Source: Candidatus Coprovivens sp.
GTDB lineage: Bacteria > Bacillota_I > Bacilli_A > RF39 > UBA660
Length of the DNA stretch: 64,000 nt
NCBI GenBank assembly: GCA_051892935.1
Contig: JBJFGS010000025.1
Span: forward strand, 80,813 to 144,812
Reading direction: 5' to 3'
The notes below the pieces were generated by a model that saw only the letters and a program-made list of their open reading frames with translations, ran no database searches and had not been told where the DNA came from. A program made the translations under genes and the position numbers. Position 1 is the stretch's first letter; each line of letters begins with the position of its first letter. Shown here one piece after another: positions 4,341 through 46,966 of this stretch.

Positions 4341-4825
4341 TTCTTCCTTGCTTGAACAACGGCTCTCAATTTTTTTGAGTATTCTAGCTCCGCTTTTAAA
4401 TATAAATTTTCTTCTTCCAATCTTTTTATTTTTTCTTTATCTGTTTCATTTTCTTTTTTCTTTGTTACTTTAGGCATAGTTGACCGTCCTCGCTTTCGTT
4501 CAACTATATTATAACCATTTTCTATATAATTTTTAATCCAATTTTGTAACATTCCATAACTTAGTAAACTCATATCCAAAGCAACAGACCATACGGCCTC
4601 ACCATTAATTAAAACTCTATCAATAGCTTCTTGTTTTTCGAATCTTGTATGATTTTTATTTTTACCAGCTCTTAAAATATCTATTCCGTGTTTATCAATT
4701 AGTGCAATTAGATAATTTATTAGACATTTTCTAACTTTATACTTATTTGATAAACTGCATATGGACATTCCATTCTTTTTATCATTATACAAATTTATTT
4801 TATCTTCATAAGTTAATTTTGACAT
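4319..4825 (-). CDS. IS3 transposase orfA (HTH)
   Basis: 168-aa ORF with an HTH-like N-terminus and a leucine-zipper-like LEEENLYLKAELE. It ends in an A-rich gaaaaag stretch where IS3 elements normally frameshift into orfB. Confidence 0.8.
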   Translation of the reverse strand: MSKLTYEDKINLYNDKKNGMSICSLSNKYKVRKCLINYLIALIDKHGIDILRAGKNKNHTRFEKQEAIDRVLINGEAVWSVALDMSLLSYGMLQNWIKNYIENGYNIVERKRGRSTMPKVTKKKENETDKEKIKRLEEENLYLKAELEYSKKLRAVVQARKNQQQKKK

Positions 4826-4900: not shown

Positions 4901-5812
4901 TTAAACTTTTTCTACTAATTTAATAGATTTATCTACTAAGTAATTAATATTTTCATCTCTACATACTGTATCTTTTTTAGTATGAATTTTATCTATATAT
5001 TCAAAATGCTTTCCTCTAATTACTGAACAAACACCTACACCATTAGTAAAATTAGCTTGATCAGATGGATAAATAGCTCCTTTAGTAATCATATCAGTAA
5101 TAACATTATTATCACTAGTATAAACATCTTTTAACAAATCTACATTTTTAATAGCTTTTTTATTAAAAATAAACATAATTTTATCTCCATCAGAAACACA
5201 ATCAAAATTAATTAGTAGCTTTTCTTTCATAACATCCTTATGCTTAGAAGCAAAAGATGCAGAACCTATAAGTCCAGATTCTTCTAAATCAAACAAGATA
5301 AAAGCAACTTTATCTTTTAAATTATCAGGTATTTTATTAATCATTTCTAGAATAGTTAATACACCAGATGTGTTATCATTAACAGTAGATTTATTTGCTG
5401 GACCAAACATTATTAAACAAACAAATAATATTATAATAAAATCATATATAAGTTCTAATAATAACTCATTAATTGGAAACAAAAATGAAATTCCAATAGT
5501 AATAAAAGCAGAAACAAATACAATTAAGAATAATAATAAAATTTGATATAAAACATAAATAAAAATATTTGTAGGTGTAATAAAATTAGGAACAGGTAAT
5601 ACAGCACAAGTATCATAATGAGCCGTAAATAAAACCTTAGCTTTACTAACATCACCAATAACTATATTTCTACTACCAAAATATCCTTTTTCAATTGATA
5701 TGTCATATTTAGAATCTTTTAATTCCTCTTTAACATAACTAATAAACTCATTTTTTTGTTTTTTATTTTTTCTAACCATATACTTATTTAAAATAGTATC
5801 TTTATACTTCAT
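4901..5812 (-). CDS. M28-family metallopeptidase with internal TM segments
   Basis: FTAHYDT and FILFDLEESGLIGS metal-ligand motifs. Start moved to the ATG at 5812 (MKYKDTIL), preceded by ggagg. The longer track ORF starts inside the upstream terminator. Confidence 0.7.
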   Translation of the reverse strand: MKYKDTILNKYMVRKNKKQKNEFISYVKEELKDSKYDISIEKGYFGSRNIVIGDVSKAKVLFTAHYDTCAVLPVPNFITPTNIFIYVLYQILLLFLIVFVSAFITIGISFLFPINELLLELIYDFIIILFVCLIMFGPANKSTVNDNTSGVLTILEMINKIPDNLKDKVAFILFDLEESGLIGSASFASKHKDVMKEKLLINFDCVSDGDKIMFIFNKKAIKNVDLLKDVYTSDNNVITDMITKGAIYPSDQANFTNGVGVCSVIRGKHFEYIDKIHTKKDTVCRDENINYLVDKSIKLVEKV

Positions 5813-5825
5813 ATAAACTTCCTCC

Positions 5826-5849
5826 AAAAAAAGAGCAATCATTGCTCTT
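5826..5849 (-). terminator. Rho-independent terminator
   Basis: On the minus strand: aagagca-atgat-tgctctt followed by ttttt. It overlaps the stop of the 56-aa ORF. Confidence 0.6.
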
Positions 5850-6018
5850 AATAATATATTAACATTCCAAAAATAGATATCAAAGAACCTAAAATCATAA
5901 CAAGAGCCATAATCCAACCAACAATTTTCATTACTAATTTTCTTTTTTGATTGGCAGTCATTTTTTTCTTTTTAGGTTTAATTTTTTCTTCGACTTCATC
6001 TTTAATTTTTTTTGCCAT
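5848..6018 (-). CDS. Small tail-anchored membrane protein (56 aa), absent from the ORF track
   Basis: MAKKIKDEVEEKIKPKKKKMTANQKRKLVMKIVGWIMALVMILGSLISIFGMLIYY. Strong RBS agaggtga 6 nt upstream; lysine-rich N-terminus plus one C-terminal TM helix. Confidence 0.55.
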   Translation of the reverse strand: MAKKIKDEVEEKIKPKKKKMTANQKRKLVMKIVGWIMALVMILGSLISIFGMLIYY

Positions 6019-6102
6019 TTAAAATCACCTCTAACTATATAAACTAAATATAATTTATCATATTTTTCACCTTAAGTAAATAAATTTAATCAGGTGAAAA
6101 AT

Positions 6103-6669
6103 ATGATAAGAATAATATCGAAGTATAAAAATATCTATATATTTCTAATAACACTAGCTATAATCGGTGCAATAAGTGGTTATCTATATTATCAGATTCA
6201 ACCAACTAAAACTAAAGAAGAAATAAAAACAAACGTCAACATCAAAGAAAGCATAAATTCAAGAGTAAATAACTTATCTAAAAACTTAAAAAATAATATA
6301 AAAATATTCTTTTATTCACTATTAATAATACCTATAATAATAAATATCTTTAATATATTTTATAAGCCTTTCGAAATAGGTTTTATTTTTAATTTATTAT
6401 CAAAATATAATATTAAACTATCATTAATATATACAAACATATACTTAAATATTCCTTTTATAATAAGTATCATCCTAACTAGAATAAGTATAACTTTCAT
6501 ATATAATATAATAAAATACATTATAATAAGAGATAATAAATCAAAAGTATTAATAAAAAATACATTTAAAAAATACATTATAATAATAATTATTTCAATA
6601 CTATACGATATATTAATTATCATCACTAGTCCTTATATAAACAGATATTTAATGACATTTATTAAATAA
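6103..6669 (+). CDS. Polytopic membrane protein, SpoIIM-like architecture
   Basis: ATG at 6103 preceded by aggtga. About 188 aa with an N-terminal TM helix and several C-terminal ones. The SpoIIM resemblance is by size and topology only. Confidence 0.5.
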   Translation: MIRIISKYKNIYIFLITLAIIGAISGYLYYQIQPTKTKEEIKTNVNIKESINSRVNNLSKNLKNNIKIFFYSLLIIPIIINIFNIFYKPFEIGFIFNLLSKYNIKLSLIYTNIYLNIPFIISIILTRISITFIYNIIKYIIIRDNKSKVLIKNTFKKYIIIIIISILYDILIIITSPYINRYLMTFIK

Positions 6670-6700
6670 TAATGTTATAATTAATAATAGAGGTGATGAT

Positions 6701-8368
6701 ATGGAAGCACTAGCTATCAGCGCAGCAAATTTAAATACCATAGAAGAAAACTTAGGAGCAGTTGCCAAAGAATTATCTGGAGTCATAAATAATGTTTCAA
6801 CAGTAAATGATCAAGTAAATAAAGTAGAATCAAAAGTAGAAACACTTAATGACGAAGTAAAAAGCCTAGTTAAAGAAATAAGAGAAACTACTATAATAAC
6901 AAACGCTCGTCAATCTATTATGTATAACAACTCAGAAATAGAAAAAAAATATGGATACTACGATAAAGTAAGAAGAACAACTGAATCCCTATTAGATGCT
7001 ATTGAAAACTCATCAATAAGAAAAAATTCTCTTCAAGAACTAAATCAAGAAATTATTTTAAATAATCCAAATTACTGGTTATCTTCTGCTTTAGCTGCAT
7101 TATCATCATGGTTATTAAACGATCGTACAAATACCGAAAAAGAATTAAATAACGCATTAAAAAAAGATAATAAAAAAACAAGTCTTTTCTTCTGTTTGAT
7201 AAATTTAAAATTACAAAGAACTCAAACATCTTTAAATTGGTTAAATAAATATCTATCTCTTCAAAATCCAACTAAATTAGATAAAGATTTTATAACTATC
7301 CTTGATTTAATTGCAACAGGTACTTTTGGTGATGAAGCCAAAAATACAGTATTAAAAAAAATAAATTTCTGGTTTAATAGTCTTAACTCTGAAAAAGAAA
7401 TACAAAACGAACAAAAAAGCATATGGAGCAATTTTTTAAAAACAAAACAAGATACCGATATAAGAATGCCAAATTTAGAAAACTATTCCCCAGATGTATT
7501 CAAACTAAAAAACAACTTAGCAATAACATCAACTTATATAAATGTCCTTAATCATTTAGAAAACATTATAAAAAGCGACACATCAAATAAAGGAATAAAC
7601 GAAATAATAAATAATTTAATATACGAATACGAATCAAATGAACAAATATATCAAAAAGACAATTTAAAAAATAATCTTATTATAGAATGTAATGGTAATA
7701 GAGAAGAAGCCGAAAAACTATTTAAAAAACAAGAAAGTATTTATAACAATGAAACCAATCTTCTAACCCTTTTAAGCAACATTATAATATATAAAAATTC
7801 ATACAGTATTAGTAATGAAACACAAAAAATAGCTTTATCACTAATGAAAGAATACATCCAAAACGCTATTGAAGAAATGAATGAAGAAATAAGTAAAGAT
7901 AACATCAATATATCAATAGACAAATTTAAAACAACAACCAAAGATGGAAGTAATTTAAAAGAAGCAAAACAAGACTTAGAAGCTTATCTAAGTACGATAT
8001 TTAATGAAGAAGATAAAGATTTAATAATTACTCTTTTAATAATAAATATTCTAGGAATAATAGGAATATTCATAACTTTAAACAGCAAAATTCTTTGTAC
8101 ATTATTAATAATAATAATTCTATTAGGAAATTTCATTTTACTATTTAAATTAAATCAAAGAAATAGGCTAAGAACAAGAGAAAAAAATAAATTGAGAATC
8201 AATATAGGAAATATCCTTGAAAGAGTCTTAGCAGAAACAACAGATTACAACAACTTAATGTTAGAAGACAACGAACATTATATAGAATTAAAAACATATC
8301 TAAACAATCTAGAAGCTGAAAACTACACAAAAAGTAACGACGAAAGAAATATTAATATAGGAGAATAA
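6701..8368 (+). CDS. Coiled-coil protein with two C-terminal TM helices (unknown function)
   Basis: 555 aa; RBS agaggtga. N-terminal heptad-like NLNTIEENLGAVAKELSGVINNVSTVNDQVNKVESKVETLNDEVKSLVKEIRE. TM pair LIITLLIINILGIIGIFITL and LCTLLIIIILLGNFILLFKL. Confidence 0.75.
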   Translation: MEALAISAANLNTIEENLGAVAKELSGVINNVSTVNDQVNKVESKVETLNDEVKSLVKEIRETTIITNARQSIMYNNSEIEKKYGYYDKVRRTTESLLDAIENSSIRKNSLQELNQEIILNNPNYWLSSALAALSSWLLNDRTNTEKELNNALKKDNKKTSLFFCLINLKLQRTQTSLNWLNKYLSLQNPTKLDKDFITILDLIATGTFGDEAKNTVLKKINFWFNSLNSEKEIQNEQKSIWSNFLKTKQDTDIRMPNLENYSPDVFKLKNNLAITSTYINVLNHLENIIKSDTSNKGINEIINNLIYEYESNEQIYQKDNLKNNLIIECNGNREEAEKLFKKQESIYNNETNLLTLLSNIIIYKNSYSISNETQKIALSLMKEYIQNAIEEMNEEISKDNINISIDKFKTTTKDGSNLKEAKQDLEAYLSTIFNEEDKDLIITLLIINILGIIGIFITLNSKILCTLLIIIILLGNFILLFKLNQRNRLRTREKNKLRINIGNILERVLAETTDYNNLMLEDNEHYIELKTYLNNLEAENYTKSNDERNINIGE

Positions 8369-8370
8369 CT

Positions 8371-8547
8371 ATGAACGAAGAACAATTTAAAAAACTAGAT
8401 ATAGGCAATGAAATAAAAATAAAACCAGCTATTATTAATCTTCCAGAAAAAAAAGATAAAGATAATAAAAATGATGAAAAAATAATAGTCGAACTTCCAA
8501 CATGGAACATAGAACCACCTATAGAAATAAAAAGAGGCGAACAATGA
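8371..8547 (+). CDS. Small protein (58 aa), absent from the ORF track
   Basis: MNEEQFKKLDIGNEIKIKPAIINLPEKKDKDNKNDEKIIVELPTWNIEPPIEIKRGEQ. RBS aggag lies 8 nt upstream, inside the end of the previous gene. Its TGA overlaps the next ATG (caATGAca). Confidence 0.6.
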   Translation: MNEEQFKKLDIGNEIKIKPAIINLPEKKDKDNKNDEKIIVELPTWNIEPPIEIKRGEQ

Positions 8548-8978
8548 CATACGAAGAATGGTTAAATACAATTGAAGAATTAAAACACCCAAACCTAAGC
8601 ATAGATAATCTAAATAAAATAAAAAACACCTCCTTAAATGAAAATATTAATCCTTTATTAATTCCTAAAATAGAAAATTTAGTTAAAGAAAGATTAAACA
8701 ACAGCATAAATAAAATAATTTTAAATCTTAGTGAAATATTTAGCGATATAAACTACTTAGATCTAACACTACTAAATTTTAAAAAAGAAATAAACTATAT
8801 ATTAGAGATAATCTCTATAAAACAATTACCAGAAGAAAAACAAAAAGAATTAAAAGACATGATAAAAGCCGAAAGTAATAATGTAATAGAAATTCTAAAT
8901 AAAGAAGCACAAAAGCTTGATTACACAGGTTCCTTATCATCAATAATAAATAACTATAGAATAAAATGGAGTGAATAA
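8544..8978 (+). CDS. Hypothetical protein (144 aa)
   Basis: Start placed at the ATG at 8544 (MTYEEWLNTIEEL), which forms an ATGA overlap with the upstream small ORF. The track start at 8502 lacks an RBS. Confidence 0.65.
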   Translation: MTYEEWLNTIEELKHPNLSIDNLNKIKNTSLNENINPLLIPKIENLVKERLNNSINKIILNLSEIFSDINYLDLTLLNFKKEINYILEIISIKQLPEEKQKELKDMIKAESNNVIEILNKEAQKLDYTGSLSSIINNYRIKWSE

Positions 8979-8979
8979 A

Positions 8980-10476
8980 ATGAATTACAATGAAGCAAAA
9001 GAATACTTAAAAAGATATTTAAAAGCAAGAATACCAGTTATTATAATTAATACAGCAGAAAAAAATCGTTCATTAAGATTAATTAAAGAAATTGCCAATG
9101 AAGCAAATATGAATTTTAATTTATATCAAATGTCTCAAGGAATATCTGATTTAAAAACAAATACAATAAAAAGCGAAGATAAAACAATAATGAGTGCCAT
9201 TGATTACATTGTAAACGAAATAAGACACCAAGAAAATAGTAATTTTATCATAAGTGATATATCAGATATATACGAATCAACCACCATTTCAAGGTACCTT
9301 GTAGATGTAATAGAAAAAGCAGAAACCATGTCTGGAGTAATAGTTTTAGTTACAAACGAACCAATTTGGTCAAATATTCAAAGATTAGGAATAACAATCA
9401 AACTAAACTACCCTACAGAATCAGAATTAAAAGAAACAATAATGAACACTATTTCTCCTTATAAAAACCAAATTGAAATAGAATGGGATGAAATAGACTA
9501 TGTAAATGCTGCAACATATCTTCAAGGATTAAGTGAAATGGAAGTAAAAAATATTATCTCATCATTAATTGTAAAAGGTTCAATAAAAAAAGAAGATTTA
9601 AAAGAACTAAAATATGCAAAACAAACTTTATTTAATGAAATAGCAGGGTTAGAAGCTATTGAAGTAGATGATGACTTTCAAATAGCTGGACTAGATAATT
9701 TAAAAGAATGGTTATATGAAAAGAAAACTTTAATGGATCCAGCAAAAAAAGAAGAGCTATCAAAAAGAGGAATTGCTGCTCCTCGAGGAATTCTACTAAC
9801 TGGAGTACCAGGTTGCGGAAAAAGTCTTTGTTCAAAAGCAACAGCAAGTATCTTTAATATTCCCTTATATAGACTTGATTTAGCAACTGTTCAAGGTCAA
9901 TACGTTGGTCAATCAGAAAAACAACTCAAAGAAGCTCTAGATACAGCAGAATACGTTTCCCCTTGTGTTCTTTGGATTGATGAAATAGAAAAAGGATTAA
10001 ACGATTCAAATTCTAGTGTTACATCAAAAATGATTGGCCAATTCCTATTTTGGTTACAAGAATGTGAAAAGCCCGTATTCGTAATAGCATCAGCTAATAG
10101 CGTTGAATCACTACCACCAGAACTAATAAGAAAAGGACGTTTTGATGAAATATTCTTCGTTGATTTACCAAACGCATCCGAAAGAAAACAACTACTAAAA
10201 TTATATTCAAATAAATATTTAAAAGTAGAAATAAGTGAAGAACTAAAAAACAAACTAGTCTCAATAACCGAAGGATTCGCAAGCGCTGATATTGAGGCAA
10301 CAATTCGTAATATAGCATATAAATTAATTGCCAATAAAGATATCGAATTAACAGAAAGACTTATAATAGAAGAATTATCAAAAGTAGTATCACTATCCAA
10401 AACAAATCCAGAAAAAATAGAAAAAATACGAAAATGGGGACAAGAAAGAGCAACCAAAGCATCAAAAGATATATAG
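8980..10476 (+). CDS. AAA+ ATPase (classical clade) with a degenerate N-terminal AAA-like half
   Basis: Walker A GVPGCGKS, Walker B VLWIDEIEK, second-region/Arg-finger PPELIRKGRFDEIFFVDLP. The N-terminal ~260 aa (PVIIINTAEKNRS...VIVLVTNEP) lack a P-loop. ATG at 8980 is preceded by ggag. Confidence 0.85.
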   Translation: MNYNEAKEYLKRYLKARIPVIIINTAEKNRSLRLIKEIANEANMNFNLYQMSQGISDLKTNTIKSEDKTIMSAIDYIVNEIRHQENSNFIISDISDIYESTTISRYLVDVIEKAETMSGVIVLVTNEPIWSNIQRLGITIKLNYPTESELKETIMNTISPYKNQIEIEWDEIDYVNAATYLQGLSEMEVKNIISSLIVKGSIKKEDLKELKYAKQTLFNEIAGLEAIEVDDDFQIAGLDNLKEWLYEKKTLMDPAKKEELSKRGIAAPRGILLTGVPGCGKSLCSKATASIFNIPLYRLDLATVQGQYVGQSEKQLKEALDTAEYVSPCVLWIDEIEKGLNDSNSSVTSKMIGQFLFWLQECEKPVFVIASANSVESLPPELIRKGRFDEIFFVDLPNASERKQLLKLYSNKYLKVEISEELKNKLVSITEGFASADIEATIRNIAYKLIANKDIELTERLIIEELSKVVSLSKTNPEKIEKIRKWGQERATKASKDI

Positions 10477-10484
10477 GTGATAAA

Positions 10485-11312
10485 ATGAAAGAAAAAAAAG
10501 ACATCAAATATCTTGTCAAAAGTAACAATTACATAGGACTATTATTCTTCGCGCTAGTACTAGCATCACTATTATATATATTAAAAAAAGAAGAAACAAC
10601 ATTTCAAAACATCGAACCAACTATGAATGAAATAACAAACTTACAAGAACAACCTAAAGAAATAACAGAGCCAACAAAAGAAATATCAGATCTCCAAAAC
10701 TATCTAAATACCGGAGATCCAAACACATTTAATATATATCAATCACATTATATATTAAATGAAAAAATAACAAAAGATAACCTTAATAACGAAACTCTTC
10801 TATATATGGCATATAAATATATAGAAAAAACAACCGACTTCACAAACTATATAAACTACCTGGGTTGTGATGAAGCTCAAATCATAGGACTAGATAATCA
10901 AATAACACAATGTGGTGGAACCAAAATAAATGCTACTACTTATACGATGAACAGATATATTACAAAAGAATTATTAAATAAAACAATCAAAAAAATATTT
11001 AACATAAATCTAACTCAATATACAAACTTTTATACAAGTGAAGATAATCTATGTTACTATTTAAAAGACGAATTTTTATGTGTTTCCCATCAAACAAATA
11101 AAATAACAAATTATGGCGAAAAAGAATTTCAAAAAGCATACAAATATAATAATAAAATAGAAATTATAGAAAAATATCATTTCATAAATAATGGAATATA
11201 TTACAAAGGTTTTAATAGCCAAGAAATAGGTGAAGGATATTATAAAAGTACCTTCAATAAAATAAATGGTTCATATTACTGGGAAAGCACAGAGTATTAC
11301 GAAATAAACTAG
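10485..11312 (+). CDS. Membrane-anchored protein (N-terminal TM), unknown function
   Basis: ATG at 10485 follows aggtga. TM helix IGLLFFALVLASLLYIL, then a ~240-aa Asn/Tyr-rich domain. Confidence 0.7.
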   Translation: MKEKKDIKYLVKSNNYIGLLFFALVLASLLYILKKEETTFQNIEPTMNEITNLQEQPKEITEPTKEISDLQNYLNTGDPNTFNIYQSHYILNEKITKDNLNNETLLYMAYKYIEKTTDFTNYINYLGCDEAQIIGLDNQITQCGGTKINATTYTMNRYITKELLNKTIKKIFNINLTQYTNFYTSEDNLCYYLKDEFLCVSHQTNKITNYGEKEFQKAYKYNNKIEIIEKYHFINNGIYYKGFNSQEIGEGYYKSTFNKINGSYYWESTEYYEIN

Positions 11313-11331
11313 TTATTTTAACTAGTTTTTT
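11306..11331 (+). terminator. Rho-independent terminator of the 6701-11312 cassette
   Basis: 9-bp stem aaactagtt / aactagttt with loop atttt, followed by a T run. It overlaps the stop codon. Confidence 0.8.
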
Positions 11332-11372
11332 CTTGATATTTCCTTGACATATCAAGTGTCTAGCAATATAAT
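11332..11372 (+). promoter_or_regulatory. Consensus SigA-type promoter overlapped by a palindromic operator
   Basis: TTGACA (11344-11349), 17-nt spacer, TATAAT (11367-11372). Perfect 8-bp inverted repeat cttgatat...atatcaag (11332-11356) brackets the -35 box. Confidence 0.7.
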
Positions 11373-11408
11373 TAAGATGTAAAATATAAAAGAAAGGAAT
11401 TGGTAAAA

Positions 11409-12176
11409 ATGCGTAAATTAAATGAATTATTTCAAGAATTAGGAATATCTAAAGTAAGATTAGCAAAATATTTAGGAGTTTCAAGACAAATGGTCTATAA
11501 CTATCTAGAACTAAATGATATAAATAAATGGCCAAAAGAAAAAAAATTATTACTATTTAAATTATTAGATATAAATGATAGTAACGCAATAGAAGATATT
11601 CAAGTAACAACAGACTACTTAATGAATGTTGAAAGTAGATTAAATCAAGGAGTAAAAAGTACGGCTGAAATGGATAATGGTTTAAACTTCAAAGGTTTAA
11701 ATAAAGAATCACAAGTACTCCTAAGCGATATAACTTATCTTCTAAAAGAAAAATTAAGTGATGAGACAAAAGAAGAAAACTACTATGCTATTTTATATCT
11801 ATATCATCTACTACAATCTTTAGATAATGTTCCAGAAATTAAATATATATTTGGTTATATGAGTAAAACAACAGGATTTACCAATCCAGAAGAATATAAA
11901 TTTCAAGAAGATAAACAATTTATTTTTGAAGGTATCCTATACTCAGCTTTAACATTATACAACAACGGAGGAGCATCTCGTTCTAAGTTAGCCGAATCAC
12001 ATAAACGTTTTGTACAAGAAATAGAACAAAAAAATGAAGAAAAACTTTCTCGTACACAACAACTAAATACAATAAAAATTCAAGCACTTAAAGAACTAGG
12101 ATTCACAGAAATAAACGAAAGCAATGCTGCCGAAGTATTTGAAAAAATAGCAGAAATTCAATCAAGAAAGGTTTAG
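11409..12176 (+). CDS. HTH-domain transcriptional regulator
   Basis: N-terminus MRKLNELFQELGISKVRLAKYLGVSRQMVYNYLE is a typical helix-turn-helix. The remaining ~200 aa were not recognised. Confidence 0.7.
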   Translation: MRKLNELFQELGISKVRLAKYLGVSRQMVYNYLELNDINKWPKEKKLLLFKLLDINDSNAIEDIQVTTDYLMNVESRLNQGVKSTAEMDNGLNFKGLNKESQVLLSDITYLLKEKLSDETKEENYYAILYLYHLLQSLDNVPEIKYIFGYMSKTTGFTNPEEYKFQEDKQFIFEGILYSALTLYNNGGASRSKLAESHKRFVQEIEQKNEEKLSRTQQLNTIKIQALKELGFTEINESNAAEVFEKIAEIQSRKV

Positions 12177-12191
12177 CAATAAACCTTTTTT
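12167..12191 (+). terminator. Rho-independent terminator
   Basis: Stem aaaggttt / aaaccttt with loop agcaat, followed by a T run. Confidence 0.7.
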
Positions 12192-12209
12192 ATAATAAAA
12201 GGAGTATAT

Positions 12210-12791
12210 ATGAAAAAGAAAATAATAATATTATCTAGCTTACTATTATTAATTAGTGGATGTAAAGAAAAAGAAATAGAATGTGAAGAGCAAAAAGAAG
12301 AAACACTAATAAAATATAATAATACAAAAATAACCGAAAAAGATGCTCTAGAAGAAACAAAAGAATATATCTTTCCAGTTATATTTGAAAAAGTAATAGG
12401 AGATATTTTAACAGAAGAAATGAAGGATAAACTCGAAGATGGAAATAACTACGCAGAAGAAACAATAGAAGAACTAAAAACTTACTATGAAGATGAACTT
12501 GAAAAAGCAATAATATCCTATACATCATATAAAACAATAGAAGAATATAAAAGATCAATTTTAATAAGTTATTTACAAGAAGAATATTTTAAAGAATATA
12601 TTAGCAATAAAGAAAAAATAGATTACAACGAAATTACCGATGATAATTTAACTAATTATTATAAAAAATATTATGTTGAGAGTATAAACGACTTATTAAA
12701 AAAATATAATGTAACATTCGAAAATAAAGATTATAAAAAGATGTATGAAAAATATATAGAAGAAAAAGAAACTTACTATAATAATAACTAA
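12210..12791 (+). CDS. Lipoprotein, unknown function
   Basis: Signal peptide with lipobox LLLLISGC; acidic Glu/Lys/Tyr-rich mature part; RBS aaaggag. Confidence 0.75.
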   Translation: MKKKIIILSSLLLLISGCKEKEIECEEQKEETLIKYNNTKITEKDALEETKEYIFPVIFEKVIGDILTEEMKDKLEDGNNYAEETIEELKTYYEDELEKAIISYTSYKTIEEYKRSILISYLQEEYFKEYISNKEKIDYNEITDDNLTNYYKKYYVESINDLLKKYNVTFENKDYKKMYEKYIEEKETYYNNN

Positions 12792-13410: not shown

Positions 13411-13607
13411 TGCCAAACCAAAAACGAACAAATGTATAACATATAAGAAAATAATAATTTTAAATTTTTTCTTAAATTAAAGATTAATTAAATAATAATT
13501 ATATAATATATATTAATAAAATAAAACTAAAGAAAAATAACATAATAAAGAAATAAATTAACAAAATAATTTTCTATATATAAATGAATTTTTAAATTAA
13601 ATATTTA

Positions 13608-13635
13608 ACTTCGTATAATATATATTATGTTAACC
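13608..13635. other. dif: dif-like XerC/XerD chromosome-dimer resolution site
   Basis: ACTTCGTATAA-TATATA-TTATGTTAACC. This matches 24 of 28 positions of B. subtilis dif as I recall it (ACTTCCTAGAATATATATTATGTAAACT). The right arm matches the E. coli XerD arm TTATGTTAAAT at 9 of 11. It sits at the gene-orientation switch, 1.7 kb from a Xer gene. Confidence 0.75.
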
Positions 13636-13718: not shown

Positions 13719-14447
13719 CTATAAAGATATGATAATTATTATAATTCCAAATATAATCCCCATAATAAGCCATTTATAACATTTATAAGAGATTCCTTCT
13801 TTTAAAATTTTTAAAACACTAAGACTAATCATAATACCACCAGTAATTATTAGAATAATACTCATAATAAAATCATTAATAAAATTATTTAAAAAAATAA
13901 TACTAAATAAAGCACCAAAAACTTCCCCCATAGAACTAATAATAGTCATAAAAAAAGCTTTCCCCCTACTTCCAGTACTATAATAAATAGGTAAACTAAT
14001 ACATATTCCTTCCGGAATATTATGAATCATAATAATAAAACTCATCTTCAAACCTAAAGAAAGATTATTACTACTAGTTAAAGCACAAATAACTCCTTCA
14101 GGAACATTATGAACAAATAAACTAAGCATACTAAGAATACCTATCTTATATAAGCTACTCTCCCCTACAATATTTCTATCAATAACAAAAACAATTATAT
14201 AACCAATCAATAATAAAATTAAACCATACACAAAAATACCAAATATACTAAAATCATTATTAACCAATAATAAACCATCAGGAATTAATTCTATAATAGA
14301 GATTAAAAACATAACTATAAAAGATAACCCCATTGAAAAAGAGATTAACTTATTTTTATATTTTACATCAATAAATAATAGTATATTTCCTAATATAGTA
14401 GCAAATCCAGCTATAAAAGTTATAATTAAAGGATAAATATTTTTCAT
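13719..14447 (-). CDS. zupT: ZIP-family divalent metal transporter (ZupT-like)
   Basis: 242-aa polytopic protein with the paired HNVPEG and HNIPEG motifs of ZIP transporters. Confidence 0.8.
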   Translation of the reverse strand: MKNIYPLIITFIAGFATILGNILLFIDVKYKNKLISFSMGLSFIVMFLISIIELIPDGLLLVNNDFSIFGIFVYGLILLLIGYIIVFVIDRNIVGESSLYKIGILSMLSLFVHNVPEGVICALTSSNNLSLGLKMSFIIMIHNIPEGICISLPIYYSTGSRGKAFFMTIISSMGEVFGALFSIIFLNNFINDFIMSIILIITGGIMISLSVLKILKEGISYKCYKWLIMGIIFGIIIIIISL

Positions 14448-14530
14448 AGTAAATTATATTCAATAAATTACCAACTATTACCATAATATATTATTAAATA
14501 TAGCTAATAATAGTATTAGGAGGTTAGATT

Positions 14531-14656
14531 ATGAGCAGAAAAGAAAATAATCAAAAATCTTCTAGTAGATGTAATAATAATGCTAGAAGCAAAGAAAGAT
14601 CTAATGCTAGATCAAATGAACAAAAACAATCTGGATCAAAAAGCCAAAATAAGTAA
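14531..14656 (+). CDS. Small basic protein (41 aa), absent from the ORF track
   Basis: MSRKENNQKSSSRCNNNARSKERSNARSNEQKQSGSKSQNK. Strong RBS aggagg 7 nt upstream; terminator immediately downstream. Confidence 0.5.
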   Translation: MSRKENNQKSSSRCNNNARSKERSNARSNEQKQSGSKSQNK

Positions 14657-14666
14657 TCAAAATAAA

Positions 14667-14697
14667 AAGAACTATTTTTTAGTTCTTTTATTTTTTT
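14667..14697. terminator. Bidirectional hairpin terminator
   Basis: aagaact-atttttt-agttctt flanked by T runs on both strands. It overlaps the stop of the 14688-15311 gene. Confidence 0.65.
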
Positions 14698-15311
14698 ACC
14701 AAACAAGTAACTGCTTCTCTATCTTTTGTCTCACTATTAACATAATAGCAAGTACATAAATTTTCCCTGCAGCTACCACAATCAACAGCAGTAGCACATT
14801 TCGTTAATCTAATTTTCTCGCTATTTTGAGGGCTAACTGAACCAGGGTTATTAACAACTTTTTCTAAACCTGCAACTTTAGTTGCTCCTTGCTTATTTAA
14901 ATTAGTATATGAACTAGGAATAATTATAGTAAAGCCATCATCGCACTTAGTTTCATACAAATTAGTAAGTTTTTCGTTAAGTACTTTAAATTCAGCCAAT
15001 TGAGCGATACATGAATTTAAATTTATATTATCACAATAATATTTATTATCTAAGTAAGTAAACCAACTACCAACTATATCCAAACTATAATTCTGTATTT
15101 CTTTTCTTTTAGCATCTTCTTTTTTATATTCCTCAAGTAATTCTATTACAGGTTCTAGTTCACTTACACTTCCACTAACATAATACTTAGTCAAACTATT
15201 CGTAACAATCTCCGTATAATCTGAAGTTTTAAAATCAATAATTTTTTTACCTCCAAAAATAATTCCTACAATCAATAATATTATTAGTATAATAGGTAAA
15301 GCCTTTTTCAT
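14688..15311 (-). CDS. Membrane-anchored protein with Cys-rich C-terminus
   Basis: N-terminal TM ALPIILIILLIVGIIFGG. C-terminus reads CATAVDCGSCRENLCTCYY. Its ATG overlaps the Xer stop (ATGA). Confidence 0.7.
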   Translation of the reverse strand: MKKALPIILIILLIVGIIFGGKKIIDFKTSDYTEIVTNSLTKYYVSGSVSELEPVIELLEEYKKEDAKRKEIQNYSLDIVGSWFTYLDNKYYCDNINLNSCIAQLAEFKVLNEKLTNLYETKCDDGFTIIIPSSYTNLNKQGATKVAGLEKVVNNPGSVSPQNSEKIRLTKCATAVDCGSCRENLCTCYYVNSETKDREAVTCLVKK

Positions 15312-16210
15312 AAATCCTCCTTATAAATTTTATTTCTTGGATGACATTGATAATCACTCTTTATTTTCTCATTTACTAAATGAGCATATATTTGTGTAGT
15401 AGATATATCTTCGTGTCCAAGTAATTCTTGTATAATTCTCAAATCTGCCCCATTTTTTAATAAATGAGTAGCAAAAGAATGTCTAAGTACATGAGGAGAT
15501 ACATTTTTCTCTATTCCAGCTCTTTTACATTCTTTCTTTAATATTTTAAAAAATCCTTGCCTACTTATATTAGTCAAACTATTAGAAATAAACAAATAAT
15601 CGGATACTTTATCTTTTAAAATAATATTTCTATATTCCGTAACATAAATAGTCAAATATTTTAAAGCTAAATCAGTAACAGGAACTATTCTTTCCTTTTT
15701 GCCTTTCCCCATAACTCTTATAAAACAATTTTGAACATCAACATCAATTAATTTTAAATTACACAATTCAGTTATTCTAAGCCCTGTTGCATAAAGTAAT
15801 TCTAACATTGCTTTATTTCGATAGTCATAAGGGGTTAATAAGTTTATATTAAGTAACTTATTTACTTCATCTTCAGTTAAATAAGTTGGTAATTTCCTAG
15901 CATTCTTAGGACTAGAAATATTACTACAAGGATTTTCCTTTATAATATTATCATTAACTAAAAAAGTATAAAAAGAATTAATAACTGTTGTATAATGAGA
16001 AATAGTTCTAGAATTCTTATCTTGTATTGTAGCAATATATTTTTTTAAATCATCATAAGTATTATTAACGACATTTCCTTTAAAGAAAATATCAAAGTCT
16101 TTAAGATCATTTAAATAACTCTTTAAAGTATTATTAGATAACTTTCTTTCGAATTCTAAATACTTTAAATACTTATTAATATATTCACTAGGAACATATT
16201 CATCTTTCAT
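15308..16210 (-). CDS. Tyrosine site-specific recombinase, XerC/XerD family
   Basis: N-terminal core-binding YLKYLEFERKLSNNTLKSYLNDL. Catalytic ATGLRITEL, HVLRHSFATHLL, LLGHEDISTTQIYAHL (R-H-R-Y set). Confidence 0.9.
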   Translation of the reverse strand: MKDEYVPSEYINKYLKYLEFERKLSNNTLKSYLNDLKDFDIFFKGNVVNNTYDDLKKYIATIQDKNSRTISHYTTVINSFYTFLVNDNIIKENPCSNISSPKNARKLPTYLTEDEVNKLLNINLLTPYDYRNKAMLELLYATGLRITELCNLKLIDVDVQNCFIRVMGKGKKERIVPVTDLALKYLTIYVTEYRNIILKDKVSDYLFISNSLTNISRQGFFKILKKECKRAGIEKNVSPHVLRHSFATHLLKNGADLRIIQELLGHEDISTTQIYAHLVNEKIKSDYQCHPRNKIYKEDL

Positions 16211-16289
16211 ATTACCACCCTACTATTAAAATTATATAAAATTTCTCATAAAAAGTAAATTACTAAAAAAGATAATCTTTCGATTACCT

Positions 16290-17336
16290 TTAACAACCCC
16301 CAGCACCTACCCACATATCTTCAGAATAAGTATTTATTATCTCTTCTTTTAATTTACCATTATTAATAGAAAGTTTAAATTCAGTAAAAATATCACAACT
16401 TCCAACAACATAATAAATATAATTATCTCCAATATCAAGATAAGAATCAGTATAAATCATATATGAAGTTTTAGTTTCACCAGTAACATCATCATCAATT
16501 GTAGTTTCAACCGCTTTAGTATAATTCATTTTTAAAGTATATTCTTTATCTACATATATACCTTGTAAACTAAAGTAAGAAAGTTGATTTATAATCTCCT
16601 TTAAAACAACTCCATCACTATTCAAAATATATGCAATATTTTCATAAGTGTTTCTATGATTAAAAATATTATTATCCGATATAATATCATTGTTATTTCC
16701 TAAAAATAACACTAAGTACTCATCTTTTTCATCTTCCGACTTAAATGTTTTAGAAACATATAAATTATCGTTAAAATAATTATCTATAACACTAGAATCA
16801 GTAAAAACAGAAACAATAGATATATCAATAGATTTATTTCCAGCTAAAAATACTTCTCGTCTTAAAACATAATAATCTTTTGAATCATTATCATCAAAAT
16901 CAGCTTCTACATATGATTCTTTATCCAAATAATAATAAAATATTAATGGAACTTTATGTCCATTTAAAACAGCCTCTTTATTAACTTCTTTATAGAATGT
17001 ATATTTATCATTTTTTACTGGAGGCAATAATTCTTTGTTTTCATCCAAATTATCTTTTAAATCAAGATTTTCTTTACTTTGATTATCTTTTTCTAAAGTG
17101 TTATCATTTTTTGCATGCATTAAATACAAATTCCATCCACCAAAACCAATAATACCTATCAATATCAGGAATAACAATACAATCAAAAAAACATTACTTT
17201 TCCTTTTTTTAGGCATGACATCTTTAGGGATAGTTACACCATTGTTTCCATTTTCTTCTAAAACTTCATTAGATCTACTAGGTCTAATAACATTATTATT
17301 CACTTCCAACACCTCACTACTATTAAATAATAACAC
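16290..17336 (-). CDS. Single-pass membrane protein, unknown function
   Basis: TM VFLIVLLFLILIGIIGFGGW after a ~45-aa N-terminus. The start is uncertain: GTG at 17336, or GTG at 17303 preceded by gaggtg. Confidence 0.65.
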   Translation of the reverse strand: MLLFNSSEVLEVNNNVIRPSRSNEVLEENGNNGVTIPKDVMPKKRKSNVFLIVLLFLILIGIIGFGGWNLYLMHAKNDNTLEKDNQSKENLDLKDNLDENKELLPPVKNDKYTFYKEVNKEAVLNGHKVPLIFYYYLDKESYVEADFDDNDSKDYYVLRREVFLAGNKSIDISIVSVFTDSSVIDNYFNDNLYVSKTFKSEDEKDEYLVLFLGNNNDIISDNNIFNHRNTYENIAYILNSDGVVLKEIINQLSYFSLQGIYVDKEYTLKMNYTKAVETTIDDDVTGETKTSYMIYTDSYLDIGDNYIYYVVGSCDIFTEFKLSINNGKLKEEIINTYSEDMWVGAGGC

Positions 17337-20806: not shown

Positions 20807-22813
20807 TTACCCAACAGGTGGAATAAAATTAGGTTTAATTGTTCCATTATTACTAACTTGACCATTTGAAGAAACATTCGGCATCATCATATCTGGTTTA
20901 GAATTATCATAAAAATTAGTAATAACTTGAGATTGAACTTCGTTAGTAGGCTGAGAAACAACATTACCTGTATCATTAGCAGATTTTGCATTTACCTGAG
21001 AAACAGCTACACCTCCACCACTCTGTTGATTACCAGAATTATTAGAATTAGCAGCCGTTCCATGAACTTTCCAACAATTATTAACATCACATGAATTAGA
21101 ATTAGGTGCAGGGTTAGGCATTTCCATTTTTATAACCATTGGTAGCTTAAATGCTCCACCAAATCCAACACAATTACCTGGCTGTAAAATTTTCTGCTTT
21201 TCAATAACATCAGCAGAAATATTAGGTAACATCGTTCTAATATATTCAATATCCTTAGGATGTGTCATTTTAAATATTAAGAAATTACTACATTGAGCAA
21301 TAACTGTTTCTGATATTTCTACAGGTCTTTGCGAAATTATATTAAGTAAAACTCCATACTTACGACCTTCTTTAGCAATTCTATCAAATATATTATATCC
21401 AATTAAGAAAACATCTGCATCCTTTTGAACATATCTATGAGCTTCTTCCAAAAACAAATGAAACGGAATTTGTGCTCTTTGTTTTCTAGTCTTACAAAAA
21501 TCAAAGAATATTCTAGCAATAATTTTAACAATAATCTTCGCTTGAGTATCATCAATATCTTCCAAATTAATATTAATAACTTGTGCTTTCTTATTACCAA
21601 CAGCAACTAACGAAGCAATATATGTTTCATAAGAAATATAAGTATCACATTTATATATATTAGCAATTTTACTATTTATCAAAGAATTTAATCTAACTTT
21701 TAATAACATAGAATCATCATATAATTGTTCATTACTTTGGAAACCTTCACTTATTAAAGTAAACTCTAAAGCCGCAGCAAAATCTCTCATTGAATAAAAA
21801 GCATTAACTGGTTCTTCAGTCATTTCCAAATCTTCATCAATATGTTTTAAAATATAATCAGTAATTAAAACAGATTCTCCAAAATTACCATTACTATCTA
21901 TTTCAAAACACTCAGATAACGTTCTAGTATAACCCAATCCTTGAATAACACTATCAAAATTAAAATCGTTAGTATGGCATACTTCTAATACCTTAAATAT
22001 TTCATTTTTCTTATTAGCAGTAATTTGATTACTATATAAAATAGCAATTAATGCTTTCGCTATTAAATGATCTTTATATCTATTAGCTACTTCATCATCT
22101 TTACTAAATATTCTAGTTAACTTTAAAGACCTTTCTATGATAGGAATTTGACTATGTTTATCTGCTTGTAACATAATAGTTAAATCATCCATGTTTAATA
22201 AATGAAAAGGAATCTTTAATTCGTAATCAGATTCTTCTTGAATATTAGTTGTAATAAATTTATAACTATAATTAGGATTAATCTTACCTAAATCTCTAAA
22301 AGCAGTCTTATATTCACCATAAGCATCAAAAATGAAAATATTAGCATTATAAGAAACTAAATTAGGATTAGAAAAGATATTTTGAACTAATCTTGCAACC
22401 CCACATGACTTACCTGAACCAGTATTTCCAAATACTGCCATATGATTAGCAAATAGATTATTAATATCAGCAAAAACATCATAATCAGTATAAATAGAGC
22501 TTCTTCCTAATTTAAATGTTGTCTCATCATAAACCCCAACAATAGCACTAAGTTCTTGATCATTAATAGTTCTTATTTTACTAGATAAAACAGGCTTTCT
22601 AATAACACCTGATACATATCTCCCATTCATAAATTCCCCAAGAAATCTTATTTTAATTATTTCATCAGTAACTTCTTCTACTTCACCCAAAATAGCTTGA
22701 TTTGGAGCTTCAAAAACTACATGGACATTCATTAAATCTCCCATTTCTTCAGCTTTAGCTATAGTAGTAACGTGAGCTACGTTTCCAGAAATAAATTTAA
22801 TATTACCAAACAT
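20807..22813 (-). CDS. HerA/DUF87-type P-loop ATPase with low-complexity C-terminal tail
   Basis: N-terminal barrel-like GNVAHVTTIAKAEEMGDLMNVHVVFEAPNQAILGEVEEV. Walker A FGNTGSGKS, Walker B HLFLEEAHRY, then RKYGVLLNIISQRP. The last ~95 aa are Asn/Ser/Gln/Gly-rich. Start at the ATG at 22813 after agaggtg. Confidence 0.8.
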   Translation of the reverse strand: MFGNIKFISGNVAHVTTIAKAEEMGDLMNVHVVFEAPNQAILGEVEEVTDEIIKIRFLGEFMNGRYVSGVIRKPVLSSKIRTINDQELSAIVGVYDETTFKLGRSSIYTDYDVFADINNLFANHMAVFGNTGSGKSCGVARLVQNIFSNPNLVSYNANIFIFDAYGEYKTAFRDLGKINPNYSYKFITTNIQEESDYELKIPFHLLNMDDLTIMLQADKHSQIPIIERSLKLTRIFSKDDEVANRYKDHLIAKALIAILYSNQITANKKNEIFKVLEVCHTNDFNFDSVIQGLGYTRTLSECFEIDSNGNFGESVLITDYILKHIDEDLEMTEEPVNAFYSMRDFAAALEFTLISEGFQSNEQLYDDSMLLKVRLNSLINSKIANIYKCDTYISYETYIASLVAVGNKKAQVININLEDIDDTQAKIIVKIIARIFFDFCKTRKQRAQIPFHLFLEEAHRYVQKDADVFLIGYNIFDRIAKEGRKYGVLLNIISQRPVEISETVIAQCSNFLIFKMTHPKDIEYIRTMLPNISADVIEKQKILQPGNCVGFGGAFKLPMVIKMEMPNPAPNSNSCDVNNCWKVHGTAANSNNSGNQQSGGGVAVSQVNAKSANDTGNVVSQPTNEVQSQVITNFYDNSKPDMMMPNVSSNGQVSNNGTIKPNFIPPVG

Positions 22814-22870
22814 AACCAACACCTCTTTTATTATATACAACTATATCTTAACACAAAACAAAAATAAATT

Positions 22871-22901
22871 AAATAAAAAAGAACTATTTTTCCTAGTTCT
22901 T
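22871..22901 (-). terminator. Rho-independent terminator
   Basis: On the minus strand: aagaacta-ggaaaaa-tagttctt followed by tttt. It overlaps the stop of the 609-aa gene. Confidence 0.65.
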
Positions 22902-24722
22902 TAATTTAACTTTATCATTCTGTATAATAGAATTTCTAAATATAGAATTCCTTATTTTATTAATATATTGACCATATAAATCAGGATTGAATTCCTTAAT
23001 AACATTTACAGCTCTATCAAACCTCAAACTATTAATGCCACTAACATTTAAATAATGAGTTTTACTTATGTAATCACCATTTATAAACTCTCTTATTATA
23101 AAAGAATGATGTTTTAACATTAATTCATCAACATACTGACGTCTAATTAATATACTACACGCTAACTCATCATATAATTTCTTTTGAACTAATAACACAT
23201 CACTTTTCAAAGAAGGATACAAAATATTTAAAGAAGCACACATATATTTAAAATCATCTAAACTAAAATTCTCTTCCTGATACATTAGTAAAGAACCATT
23301 ATCAGAAATAACATTAATCATTTCCTTTATATGTATTAACCCATAAGAAGCAAAATATTGATTAAATACACCATCTAAATAGTTTTTCCATTCTTTTATA
23401 GAAATGTATTTATAACCAACCATTTTTCTAATAAATTCCAAATATGCTTTATGAATAATATCTCTATTATGAATATCTGCATATATATCTTTTTTCCATT
23501 CAAGTAAAATTAAATCAAAAGTATTCTTCTTTACTTCATCACTATCAAAGAATATATTTCTACCAAAATACTTTTTATCCCTAGAATAAAACCACTTAAC
23601 AACATCATAAAAAGTATCTTGATATTCTTCACTAACATTTAAATAAATAAAATAATTTATAGTTACAGAAATAGGTCTTTTCAACTCTTCAAGTAAATAA
23701 TCATAATTACTTAATACATACTCTTTCTTTCGATTATAATTATCAAAAGAAAGAGCAAATTCATTTACTTCTCCTTTCCATTCTTCTCCCTTTATACTTA
23801 AACTTTTAGATTTACCTAAATATTCACGAAAACAATCAAAATTACAAAAAGAATCTCTATCATTATTTAAAATAATATATAATAATTCCCTGTTCAATAA
23901 AGAATATTTAGAATAATAAAAAGAACTAAAATTACTGCCAACAGTACTATTATAAAACTCTATAAACTCATCTAAAGTAAAATATAAATGACTACTAGTA
24001 TATTCTTTATAAGTAAGTAAAACACTCTTTCTTAAAACATCTCTATCAAAACTATTATCAATAATTAACATTATATTTTTAAATAATAAAGATAAATTTG
24101 ATACATCAAATAATCTAATATTTTCATAATCCTTAATAAAGAAAGAAATATCATCGAAAGTAATACCAAGTAATCTAAAATTATTAAGTAAAAACTTAAT
24201 ATCATAACAGCACATAAAAGAAACAGCTTTTTTCTTTCTTAAAACATTCTCCTTCTCATTATAAATATCTAAAAAACAATTATATAAATCATATATAGTT
24301 AAACATTTATTTAAAGCACTATAAGAAATAATATCATCATTAATAACATTTTCTATTAAAGAAGAAGAAAAAAGCTTTAAAACGCCTTTAAATACATCAA
24401 TATTACTAGATTGTAATAAATAATAAATAATAATATTTCTAACATCAAAATCTAAACAAACTTCATCCATTTCATAAAGTATCAATTCTCTACTACAAGT
24501 AAAATCAAGTAATTCAAAATCATCCATAAAATGATCAGAATAACAAAGTAATAAATCATTAATATCATCACTAGAAAAACTATCTTTACTCAATATATTC
24601 CTAAGTAATACTACTTCATCACTCTCTCCATATAAAAAATAAAGATTACTAAAAGCTCTTTTCTTCAACAATATAATCTTTTTAAAAACATATTCACTTA
24701 AAAAAGACTTTATATCATTCAT
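22893..24722 (-). CDS. Large protein of unknown function, paralog A (609 aa)
   Basis: RBS aggagg. Shares blocks with the 767-aa neighbour: DDINDLLLCYSDH, LGITFDDI, YLLEELKRPI...YFIYLNV, KKYFGRNIF. Confidence 0.8.
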   Translation of the reverse strand: MNDIKSFLSEYVFKKIILLKKRAFSNLYFLYGESDEVVLLRNILSKDSFSSDDINDLLLCYSDHFMDDFELLDFTCSRELILYEMDEVCLDFDVRNIIIYYLLQSSNIDVFKGVLKLFSSSLIENVINDDIISYSALNKCLTIYDLYNCFLDIYNEKENVLRKKKAVSFMCCYDIKFLLNNFRLLGITFDDISFFIKDYENIRLFDVSNLSLLFKNIMLIIDNSFDRDVLRKSVLLTYKEYTSSHLYFTLDEFIEFYNSTVGSNFSSFYYSKYSLLNRELLYIILNNDRDSFCNFDCFREYLGKSKSLSIKGEEWKGEVNEFALSFDNYNRKKEYVLSNYDYLLEELKRPISVTINYFIYLNVSEEYQDTFYDVVKWFYSRDKKYFGRNIFFDSDEVKKNTFDLILLEWKKDIYADIHNRDIIHKAYLEFIRKMVGYKYISIKEWKNYLDGVFNQYFASYGLIHIKEMINVISDNGSLLMYQEENFSLDDFKYMCASLNILYPSLKSDVLLVQKKLYDELACSILIRRQYVDELMLKHHSFIIREFINGDYISKTHYLNVSGINSLRFDRAVNVIKEFNPDLYGQYINKIRNSIFRNSIIQNDKVKLKN

Positions 24723-24771
24723 ATATCTCCTCCTAAAGTCAAATTAATATAACAAAAAAGTATATTAAAGT

Positions 24772-24802
24772 AAATAAAAAGAATTAGAAAAATCTAATTC
24801 TT
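24772..24802 (-). terminator. Rho-independent terminator
   Basis: On the minus strand: aagaattag-attttt-ctaattctt followed by a T-rich run, directly after the stop of the 767-aa gene. Confidence 0.6.
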
Positions 24803-27052: not shown

Positions 27053-27125
27053 AAAATCATCACCTATCATTGTATAAATGATAACATAACAAAACATTCC
27101 GTGCAAATTAAAAAAGATTTATATT

Positions 27126-46944: not shown

Positions 46945-46966
46945 AAACAAATTTCTATTGTTTTTA
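46938..46966. terminator. Bidirectional hairpin terminator
   Basis: acaatagaaa-caaa-tttctattgt flanked by A and T runs, between convergent genes. Confidence 0.65.

Follow-up and report, generated by a model that had tools for sequence, protein, structure and literature searches.

The window analysed here, i.e., the whole stretch of 64 kb of DNA, is chromosomal, has a G+C content of 26% (74% A+T), and carries the housekeeping genes mscL, rarA, gpsA, gatAB, aspS, hisS, relA, tgt, queA, and uvrC. At positions 13608..13635 (+) it contains a 28-bp sequence, ACTTCGTATAATATATATTATGTTAACC, with the 11-6-11 organization of a dif site, the putative target of the recombinases XerC and XerD, which was recognized by its matches to reference sites, its uniqueness within the window, and its syntenic position in ~60 relatives. 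Blocks of genes on both sides point to this site. The left block (6094..12791, +) is a conserved syntenic flank except for positions 12210-12791, and its gene order h6094 ... AAA ... h11400 is kept beside dif in relatives. The right block (13719..17336, -), as assigned by family matches and synteny, comprises zupT, a gene for a hypothetical protein, xerD, and a second gene for a hypothetical protein. The xerD gene (15308..16210, -), identified by NCBIfam and structure matches, encodes a tyrosine recombinase of 300 aa and lies 1.7 kb from dif.

The 28-mer reads ACTTCGTATAA-TATATA-TTATGTTAACC. Its left arm ACTTCGTATAA (13608..13618, +) resembles a half-site of the XerC (CodV) type, is identical to the left arm of Bacillus subtilis dif, ACTTCCTAGAA, at 9/11 positions, and is assigned to XerC by analogy. 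The central region TATATA (13619..13624, +), which is the putative region of strand exchange, is identical to that of B. subtilis dif at 6/6 positions, and the right arm TTATGTTAACC (13625..13635, +) is a half-site of the XerD type and the most conserved part of the 28-mer. When compared with the reference sequences of B. subtilis and Escherichia coli dif, which were taken from Kono et al. (2011; PMC3025954), the 28-mer matched the former at 24/28 positions (9/11 in each arm and 6/6 in the center) and the latter at 21/28 positions (9/11 in the XerD arm and 7/11 in the XerC arm). The two arms form an inverted repeat at 6/11 positions, with the inner ATAA/TTAT being perfectly symmetric. A preliminary description of this DNA had given the 11-6-11 architecture at 13608-13635 exactly as found here; the reference dif sequences that it used agree with those printed by Kono et al. 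(2011; PMC3025954), and its two counts, 24 of 28 positions for B. subtilis dif and 9 of 11 for the XerD arm of E. coli, were reproduced on recomputation. Its placement of the site in a gap of more than 90% A+T holds approximately for the vicinity of the 28-mer (89-93% in the surrounding 250-320 bp) but not for the full 927-bp gap, which has 81% A+T. No second copy of the 28-mer with three or fewer mismatches was found in the 64-kb window, where shuffled sequences lead one to expect 0, and the next-best match to dif in the window reached 20/28. A matrix built from the relatives' sites gave the 28-mer as the sole hit of at least 12 bits in the window, at the maximum possible score of 42.5 bits. 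The window thus has one dif copy, and the relatives have one per locus, with the exception of L018, which harbors a phage-like insert.

Several features of the surroundings are specific to the window or of uncertain function. The gene at 11400-12176 (+), which is located directly left of dif in relatives, encodes a 258-aa protein without an NCBIfam match, the identity of which is 54-94% and at least 70% in 17 of the 18 loci checked. The adjacent lipoprotein gene (12210-12791) and the ~0.8 kb of non-coding DNA up to position 13607 have no counterpart in relatives; a dif-like match of 20/28 at 12654 (+) lies within the range of shuffled sequences, and it is possible but unsupported that the segment 12210-13607 is the relic of an old insertion. 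Further to the left, two ORFs of 201 and 168 aa (3472-4825, -) together represent a split transposase of the IS3 family, which, like the neighboring 338-aa ORF (4901-5917, -), is absent from this place in relatives. The Logan contigs of the window's species stop just before this IS3 element, which is consistent with a repeat. On the right side, the region 20807-27929 (-) encodes an ATPase of the HerA/FtsK superfamily (677 aa, DUF87), followed by proteins of 609, 767, and 267 aa without family matches. The ATPase was kept in position in 17/18 loci checked, and the region could represent a conserved machine. As a candidate for the translocase that guides recombination the ATPase (20807-22840) was rejected, because it matched HerA models only, far below their cut-offs, and had no FtsK/SpoIIIE signature; no gene for a translocase of the FtsK/SpoIIIE type was found in the 64-kb window. 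A LysM-domain protein encoded at 46964-48604 (-) has 546 aa from the first listed start, its homologs have 603-628 aa, and its true start is probably located further upstream. The giant 2331-aa protein encoded at 54574-61569 (-) has DUF4116 repeats as its sole family match. Searches with Rfam at gathering thresholds and with ARAGORN returned no RNA genes or repeats near dif or at the contig ends.

To follow the site among relatives, species-representative genomes were scanned using the XerD protein of the window as query. Each of the 80 loci thus obtained came from a different assembly; the source organisms are uncultured gut Bacilli or 'Tenericutes', among them Candidatus Coprovivens, and the XerD identities were 49-91%. 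The best match to the 28-mer was located downstream of xerD in ~60 of the 80 loci, at a distance of 1-3 kb in most of them and at a larger distance where a phage-like element was inserted, and in these ~60 loci the orientation of dif relative to xerD was constant except in L040 and L069. In all 18 loci checked for synteny, dif was positioned between the conserved gene for the 258-aa protein and zupT or, where zupT was undetected, the gene just downstream of xerD. The conserved order around dif is herA-tcdA-gpsA-rarA-xerD-hyp-zupT-[dif]-h11400-AAA-...-mscL-h2313-U32. In five distant relatives (L046, L050, L052, L038, and L045) the two arms of dif repeat each other in inverted orientation with perfect or near-perfect symmetry.

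The information content calculated from 60 distinct loci was 1.0-1.6 bits per position inside the 28-mer as opposed to 0.14-0.19 bits in the 30-bp flanks. In the right arm TTATGT-AAC was nearly invariant (1.59 bits per position), the central region had a mean of 1.12 bits per position, and in the left arm the inner ATAA was invariant bar one locus at position 8, with the outer seven bases being variable. Variability of the outer bases is usual for XerC arms. Since the relatives' sites had been picked by best match, a shuffle control was performed, in which 305 composition-matched shuffles of the relatives' loci reached 22/28 three times and 23/28 never; the real loci reached at least 22/28 in 50/61 cases and at least 23/28 in 42/61 cases. 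The confinement of conservation to the 28-mer, considered together with this control, therefore argues for purifying selection on the 28-mer within non-coding DNA.

Gene orientation in the window converges on the 28-mer, as had been described, with 10 genes on the + strand and 3 on the - strand left of dif and 7 and 30, respectively, right of it (Fisher p = 3e-4), and convergence on dif recurs in nearly every relative. Sequence motifs with strand polarity were less informative. The KOPS/SRS octamers GAGAAGGG, GGGNAGGG (canonical KOPS), and GGGCAGGG were essentially absent from the window, with GGGNAGGG being absent. The polarity of GAAGAAG and GAAGAA flips at dif (40:9 on the left and 37:63 on the right for GAAGAA) and is inseparable from the purine richness of coding strands, and the polar 7-mers that were identified de novo mostly belonged to shared orthologous coding sequence.

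The raw GC skew was ~0 left of dif and ~-0.35 right of it. This difference is no switch of polarity, because on the left the purine richness of the coding strand cancels the lagging-strand signature. The skew was measured free of such coding-strand effects at third codon positions (GC3) and at four-fold degenerate sites (GC4), separately for each strand. The coding-strand GC3 skew of + strand genes was -0.50 on the left and -0.55 on the right, and that of - strand genes was +0.44 on the left and +0.60 on the right (+0.31 to +0.70 in the right block, 13719..17336). In all four groups of genes C exceeds G on the + strand at third positions, and this includes the left block (6094..12791) although its genes are all encoded on the + strand. 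Four-fold degenerate sites gave G:C ratios on the + strand of 13:82 for left + genes, 12:59 for right + genes, and 80:231 for right - genes, with A exceeding T on the + strand in all groups. No sign change of GC3 or GC4 was detected at 13.6 kb or elsewhere in the window, and the intergenic DNA left of dif had a weak and non-significant skew (G 176 : C 209). Left and right of dif alike, the - strand hence has the leading-strand signature (silent sites with G>C and T>A), over at least ~40 kb on the left when the contigs described below are included and over at least 50 kb on the right, and the left-hand genes of the window look like lagging-strand genes in composition.

The window was extended using exact protein matches, of which the U32 peptidase added 8 kb, XerD led to a 4.4-kb contig, and the 258-aa neighbor to none. 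The same skew sign persisted over the 8 kb that L093, which is from the same species, adds on the left of the window (identical 3.35-kb overlap; pooled GC3 skew -0.37), and to ~20 kb left of dif in L082. It extended to ~40-43 kb left of dif in L097 and L101, which together represent one 217-kb contig with 95% DNA identity to the window over 2.2 kb. Nearly all genes in these left extensions (L093, L082, and L097/L101) still point to dif. At L098:1-3301, ~25 kb left of dif, the gene for a large serine recombinase of 537 aa and the ORF next to it have a skew opposite to that of their surroundings and are probably a recent mobile insertion.

Relatives with identical synteny fall into three skew states. 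In class C the skew flips at dif with the polarity of a terminus, from positive to negative, and is usually weak (L029-31, L040, L041, L051, L061, L067, and others). In class A it is strong and uniformly negative (the window, L004, L007, L009-11, L013, L016, L021, L035, L052, L055, and L059), and in class B it is strong and uniformly positive (L008, L017/L096, L043, and L070), the positive skew right of dif having been followed to ~+12 kb in L017. Intermediates change from ~0 to negative (L022) or from positive to ~0 (L023 and L026). Even the orthologous xerD genes differ accordingly, with third-position G:C ratios of 29:10, 31:11, and 24:1 in class A and of 15:33, 13:38, and 8:39 in class B. 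In the XerD tree the members of the classes are intermingled; L008 (class B), for instance, branches from among class A species, and L069 (class A) has L067 (class C) as its sister, so the change has occurred repeatedly.

The most serious alternative to a displaced meeting point of the replication forks is that the forks do meet at dif, that the window spans the functional terminus, and that silent-site skew does not report the present fork direction. This would account for a gene orientation that converges exactly at dif and is conserved across the clade, for the several relatives in which the skew flips at dif with terminus polarity, and for the finding that the distance between dif and the skew shift point is usually no more than ~1.4% of the genome length (PMC3025954). 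We nevertheless regard it as improbable. The + genes are equally strongly negative in GC3 and GC4 on both sides of dif, the - genes are likewise uniform, and the uniform skew goes on for ~40 kb to the left. The opposite third-position ratios of xerD between species with syntenic loci (29:10 versus 13:38) fit a change of fork direction and not a skew that fails to report it. Moreover, the strand with G>C and T>A carries 83% of the right-hand genes, and the signal thus behaves as a normal leading-strand signature.

With respect to the enzymes acting on the site, the XerD protein encoded in the window scored 327.8 bits with the NCBIfam model TIGR02225 for XerD, i.e., 1.8 bits short of the cut-off (329.6), versus 291 bits with the XerC model, and exceeded the cut-off of the PRK00283 subfamily (314.9 > 279). 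Its best match among solved structures was E. coli XerD (1A0P; E = 6e-55), to which the catalytic residues R, K, H, R, H, and Y were all aligned. It is an orthologous and vertically inherited XerD, the gene of which is linked to dif in most of the loci recovered through xerD. A xerC gene was not found within the 64-kb window, its expected position being beyond the window's left end, and was instead found by walking left of dif in relatives. It is located on the side of dif opposite xerD and ~26-39 kb away (L101:4000-4917 and L096:3457-4344), and the encoded proteins scored 339.4 bits (L101) and 338.7 bits (L096), above the equivalog cut-off of 335.15. In the sister contig (L097/L101) xerC lies ~35-39 kb left of dif, just past the position that corresponds to the left end of the window. 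Xer genes are hence present on both sides of dif in this clade, xerD on one and xerC on the other. As minor peculiarities, both xer genes are found in the vicinity of dif, and xerD stays tightly linked to it throughout the clade; according to Kono et al. (PMC3025954), xerD genes are mostly located near the origin.

Such linkage (1-3 kb in most relatives) is known from the XerS and XerH systems (PMC5357621) and would suit a system such as XerS/difSL or XerH/difH, where one recombinase, encoded near the site, acts on both arms by itself. So would the arms AGTTAACATAA / TTATGTTAACT, which are perfect inverted repeats in the distant relatives L046, L050, and L052 and raise the question whether one recombinase serves both arms there. 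For the window's lineage this is very unlikely. The site has 28 bp in an 11-6-11 arrangement and not 31 bp, the enzyme has 300 aa and scored 112.8 bits with the XerS model, for which the cut-off is 267, and the left arm matches the CodV arm of B. subtilis at 9/11 positions and is different from the right arm. XerC and XerD are 43% identical and therefore distinct paralogs, and the separate XerC, which passes the equivalog cut-off and is encoded at a distance of ~26-39 kb in two members of the clade, indicates a classical two-recombinase system, not an XerS- or XerH-like one, despite the close linkage of xerD and dif.

Phage-like elements have been integrated at dif in some relatives. The L018 locus has two direct copies of dif (26/28 and 23/28), which are 5.1 kb apart, and the inserted filamentous-phage-like element (L018:12570-17762) has genes for an XRE repressor, a 428-aa protein, a Zot-like protein (E = 2e-15), and a rolling-circle Rep protein (E = 3e-30). 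Judging by its flanking sites, this element is probably an IMEX whose integration was mediated by XerCD. A Rep gene related to that of L018 abuts dif in L082 (L082:20473-21414), and homologs of the Zot-like or the 428-aa protein are encoded near dif in L046 (L046:10555-12690) and L052 (L052:12534-14423), each with one recognizable dif copy, as well as in L048 (L048:13156-13482), where a dif copy was not detected. Integration at the dif site of this clade thus appears to be recurrent, and the inserts flanked by dif lend indirect support to Xer-dependent recombination at it. These ~5-kb Zot-like/Rep elements at dif in L018, L082, L046, and L052 resemble IMEX such as the CTX phage of Vibrio cholerae; in contrast to CTX, their hosts are AT-rich gut Bacilli and not proteobacteria, and their Xer integration is deduced from the flanking sites. 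The window itself is without such an element, and no homologs of the L018 prophage genes were found in it. The left flank of the window was also considered as an element integrated at dif and rejected, because its genes are syntenic across the clade, a second dif copy is missing, and the window has no prophage homologs.

The use of the 28-mer sequence by phage-like elements in relatives, the IS3 element and the lineage-specific DNA on the left, and a recombinase gene less than 2 kb from the site, as is typical of mobile modules and plasmid resolution systems (PMC5357621), could also be taken to mean that the 28-mer serves a mobile element (IMEX, plasmid, or island) with its own XerD-like recombinase as attachment or resolution site. 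The chance of this is slight, given that the flanks are conserved in order and orientation over ~60 species, down to ~50% XerD identity, that the flanking genes are housekeeping genes (rarA, gpsA, gatB, and mscL), that the window has neither a second dif-like copy nor an L018 prophage homolog, and that the recombinase is the orthologous, vertically inherited XerD. Finally, a functionless chance near-palindrome in an AT-rich spacer, as might be suspected in a genome with 74% A+T in which TATATA-type sequences are common and a loose core (ATAA, six unspecified bases, TTATGTTAAMY, one mismatch) is expected 0.56 times per window, can be practically dismissed, because the full 28-mer with three or fewer mismatches is expected 0 times, identical or near-identical copies occupy the syntenic spot in dozens of species with unconserved flanks, and shuffles never reach 23/28.

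We therefore propose, with a probability of roughly 0.85, that the 28-mer is a genuine dif site at a conserved and probably ancestral terminus from which today's fork-meeting point has been displaced. What had been described as a dif-like site is upgraded to a genuine XerC/XerD dif by its conservation, the linked xerD, the xerC of the sister genome, the integrated elements, and the conserved convergence of genes. It is almost certainly the chromosomal dif of an uncultured AT-rich gut bacterium of the Bacillota, similar to Candidatus Coprovivens, and joins the well-known XerC/XerD dif family as a site of the Bacillota type. The preliminary description had further concluded that the window spans the replication terminus. 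The converging gene orientation stands and marks a probable ancestral terminus; a terminus in present use is not borne out, as the GC3 and GC4 skew is uniform from ~-40 to +50 kb. The skew inflection that would be expected at the 28-mer lies elsewhere, the GC3 skew of + strand genes having the same sign on both sides (-0.50/-0.55).

By analogy to XerCD of E. coli and CodV/RipX of B. subtilis, XerD, encoded 1.7 kb away, would bind the highly conserved right arm TTATGTTAACC, and XerC, the gene of which is located ~35-39 kb left of dif in the sister genome, would bind the more variable left arm ACTTCGTATAA. The two dif copies of a chromosome dimer would be synapsed and strands exchanged across the TATATA spacer, giving monomers, and this recombination is probably controlled by a translocase of the FtsK/SpoIIIE type, again as in the model systems.

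The conserved convergence of genes and the skew flip at dif in class C suggest that dif most likely marks the ancestral terminus. In the lineage of the window the skew points to forks that pass leftwards through dif and converge at a point outside the window, more than ~40 kb from dif on its left side; in class B they would cross dif in the opposite direction, and the weak skew of class C fits a zone replicated in either direction. Only four clades have fork traps, and in all others the forks proceed until they meet (PMC6549158). Without a trap, changes of replichore length elsewhere in the chromosome would shift the meeting point and dif would stay put, and a drifting meeting point, a fork trap presumably being absent here, could produce either skew sign under one gene order. 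Nearness to the GC-skew shift point, a usual correlate of dif that is outside its biochemical definition, is absent in the window's lineage and present in some of its relatives. The dif sites surveyed by Kono et al. (2011; PMC3025954) deviated from the skew shift point by 0-1.39% of the genome length (1 sigma), and outliers reached 3%. The displacement of at least ~40 kb is at or beyond this 3% maximum if the genome has ~1.2 Mb, a size guessed from contigs of 1.19 and 1.26 Mb in relatives. It counts against the displacement that ~40 genes would have been oriented head-on to replication for long enough to re-equilibrate their silent-site skew, which is unusual for Bacillota of the PolC type. 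The broader claim that the meeting point has moved by tens of kb or more from the fixed landmark of dif, Xer genes, and gene convergence, in either direction and many times independently in a clade with small genomes, is put forward only tentatively, as somewhat less than an even bet.

Among the characterized systems, the site resembles most clearly the dif/CodV (XerC)/RipX (XerD) system of B. subtilis, with which it shares the 28-bp 11-6-11 structure, 24/28 positions including the whole TATATA spacer, paralogous recombinases of the XerC and XerD types, membership of the Bacillota, and an intergenic location at the point where gene orientation converges. It differs from B. subtilis in that xerD is 1.7 kb from dif and xerC within ~40 kb in the clade of the window and in that the silent-site skew of the window's lineage is not inverted at dif. 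In B. subtilis itself dif reportedly lies several degrees from terC. Like the dif/XerC/XerD/FtsK system of E. coli, to which it is identical at 21/28 positions and at 9/11 positions of the XerD arm, it is associated with a XerD whose closest solved structure is E. coli XerD; unlike in E. coli, the XerC arm is divergent (7/11), the canonical KOPS GGGNAGGG is absent from the window, and a trap of the Tus/ter type is not expected outside a few clades (PMC6549158). The close linkage of the recombinase gene to the site is shared with XerS/difSL of streptococci and lactococci and with XerH/difH of Campylobacter and Helicobacter, which, however, comprise a single recombinase, atypical sites (31 bp in difSL), and longer, distinct enzymes (XerS, ~356 aa). 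Termination without a fork trap, in which the meeting point need not coincide with dif, has been described for V. cholerae (Galli et al., 2019; PMC6549158). There the displacement was engineered using ectopic origins, whereas here it would, as far as the skew indicates, be natural, old, and recurrent.

The dif site as such is a routine annotation, which provides a landmark for ordering the contigs of uncultured genomes and, in a gut lineage that has received little study, also marks where filamentous-phage-like elements integrate. Of wider relevance is that dif, gene convergence, and skew inflection are commonly used as if any one of them could stand for the others in marking the terminus, and that in the lineage studied here the first two agree and the third differs, with the direction of the mismatch varying among close relatives that have the same gene order. 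If the displacement is true, the resolution of chromosome dimers in these bacteria would not require dif to be at the replication terminus, and blocks of ~40 genes would have stayed head-on until their silent sites were fully re-equilibrated; in an extreme version, replication would be strongly asymmetric or effectively one-directional in some lineages. If confirmed, the clade would represent a natural experiment on how closely dif has to follow the point where the forks meet and on the respective pace at which skew and gene orientation adjust after that point has moved.
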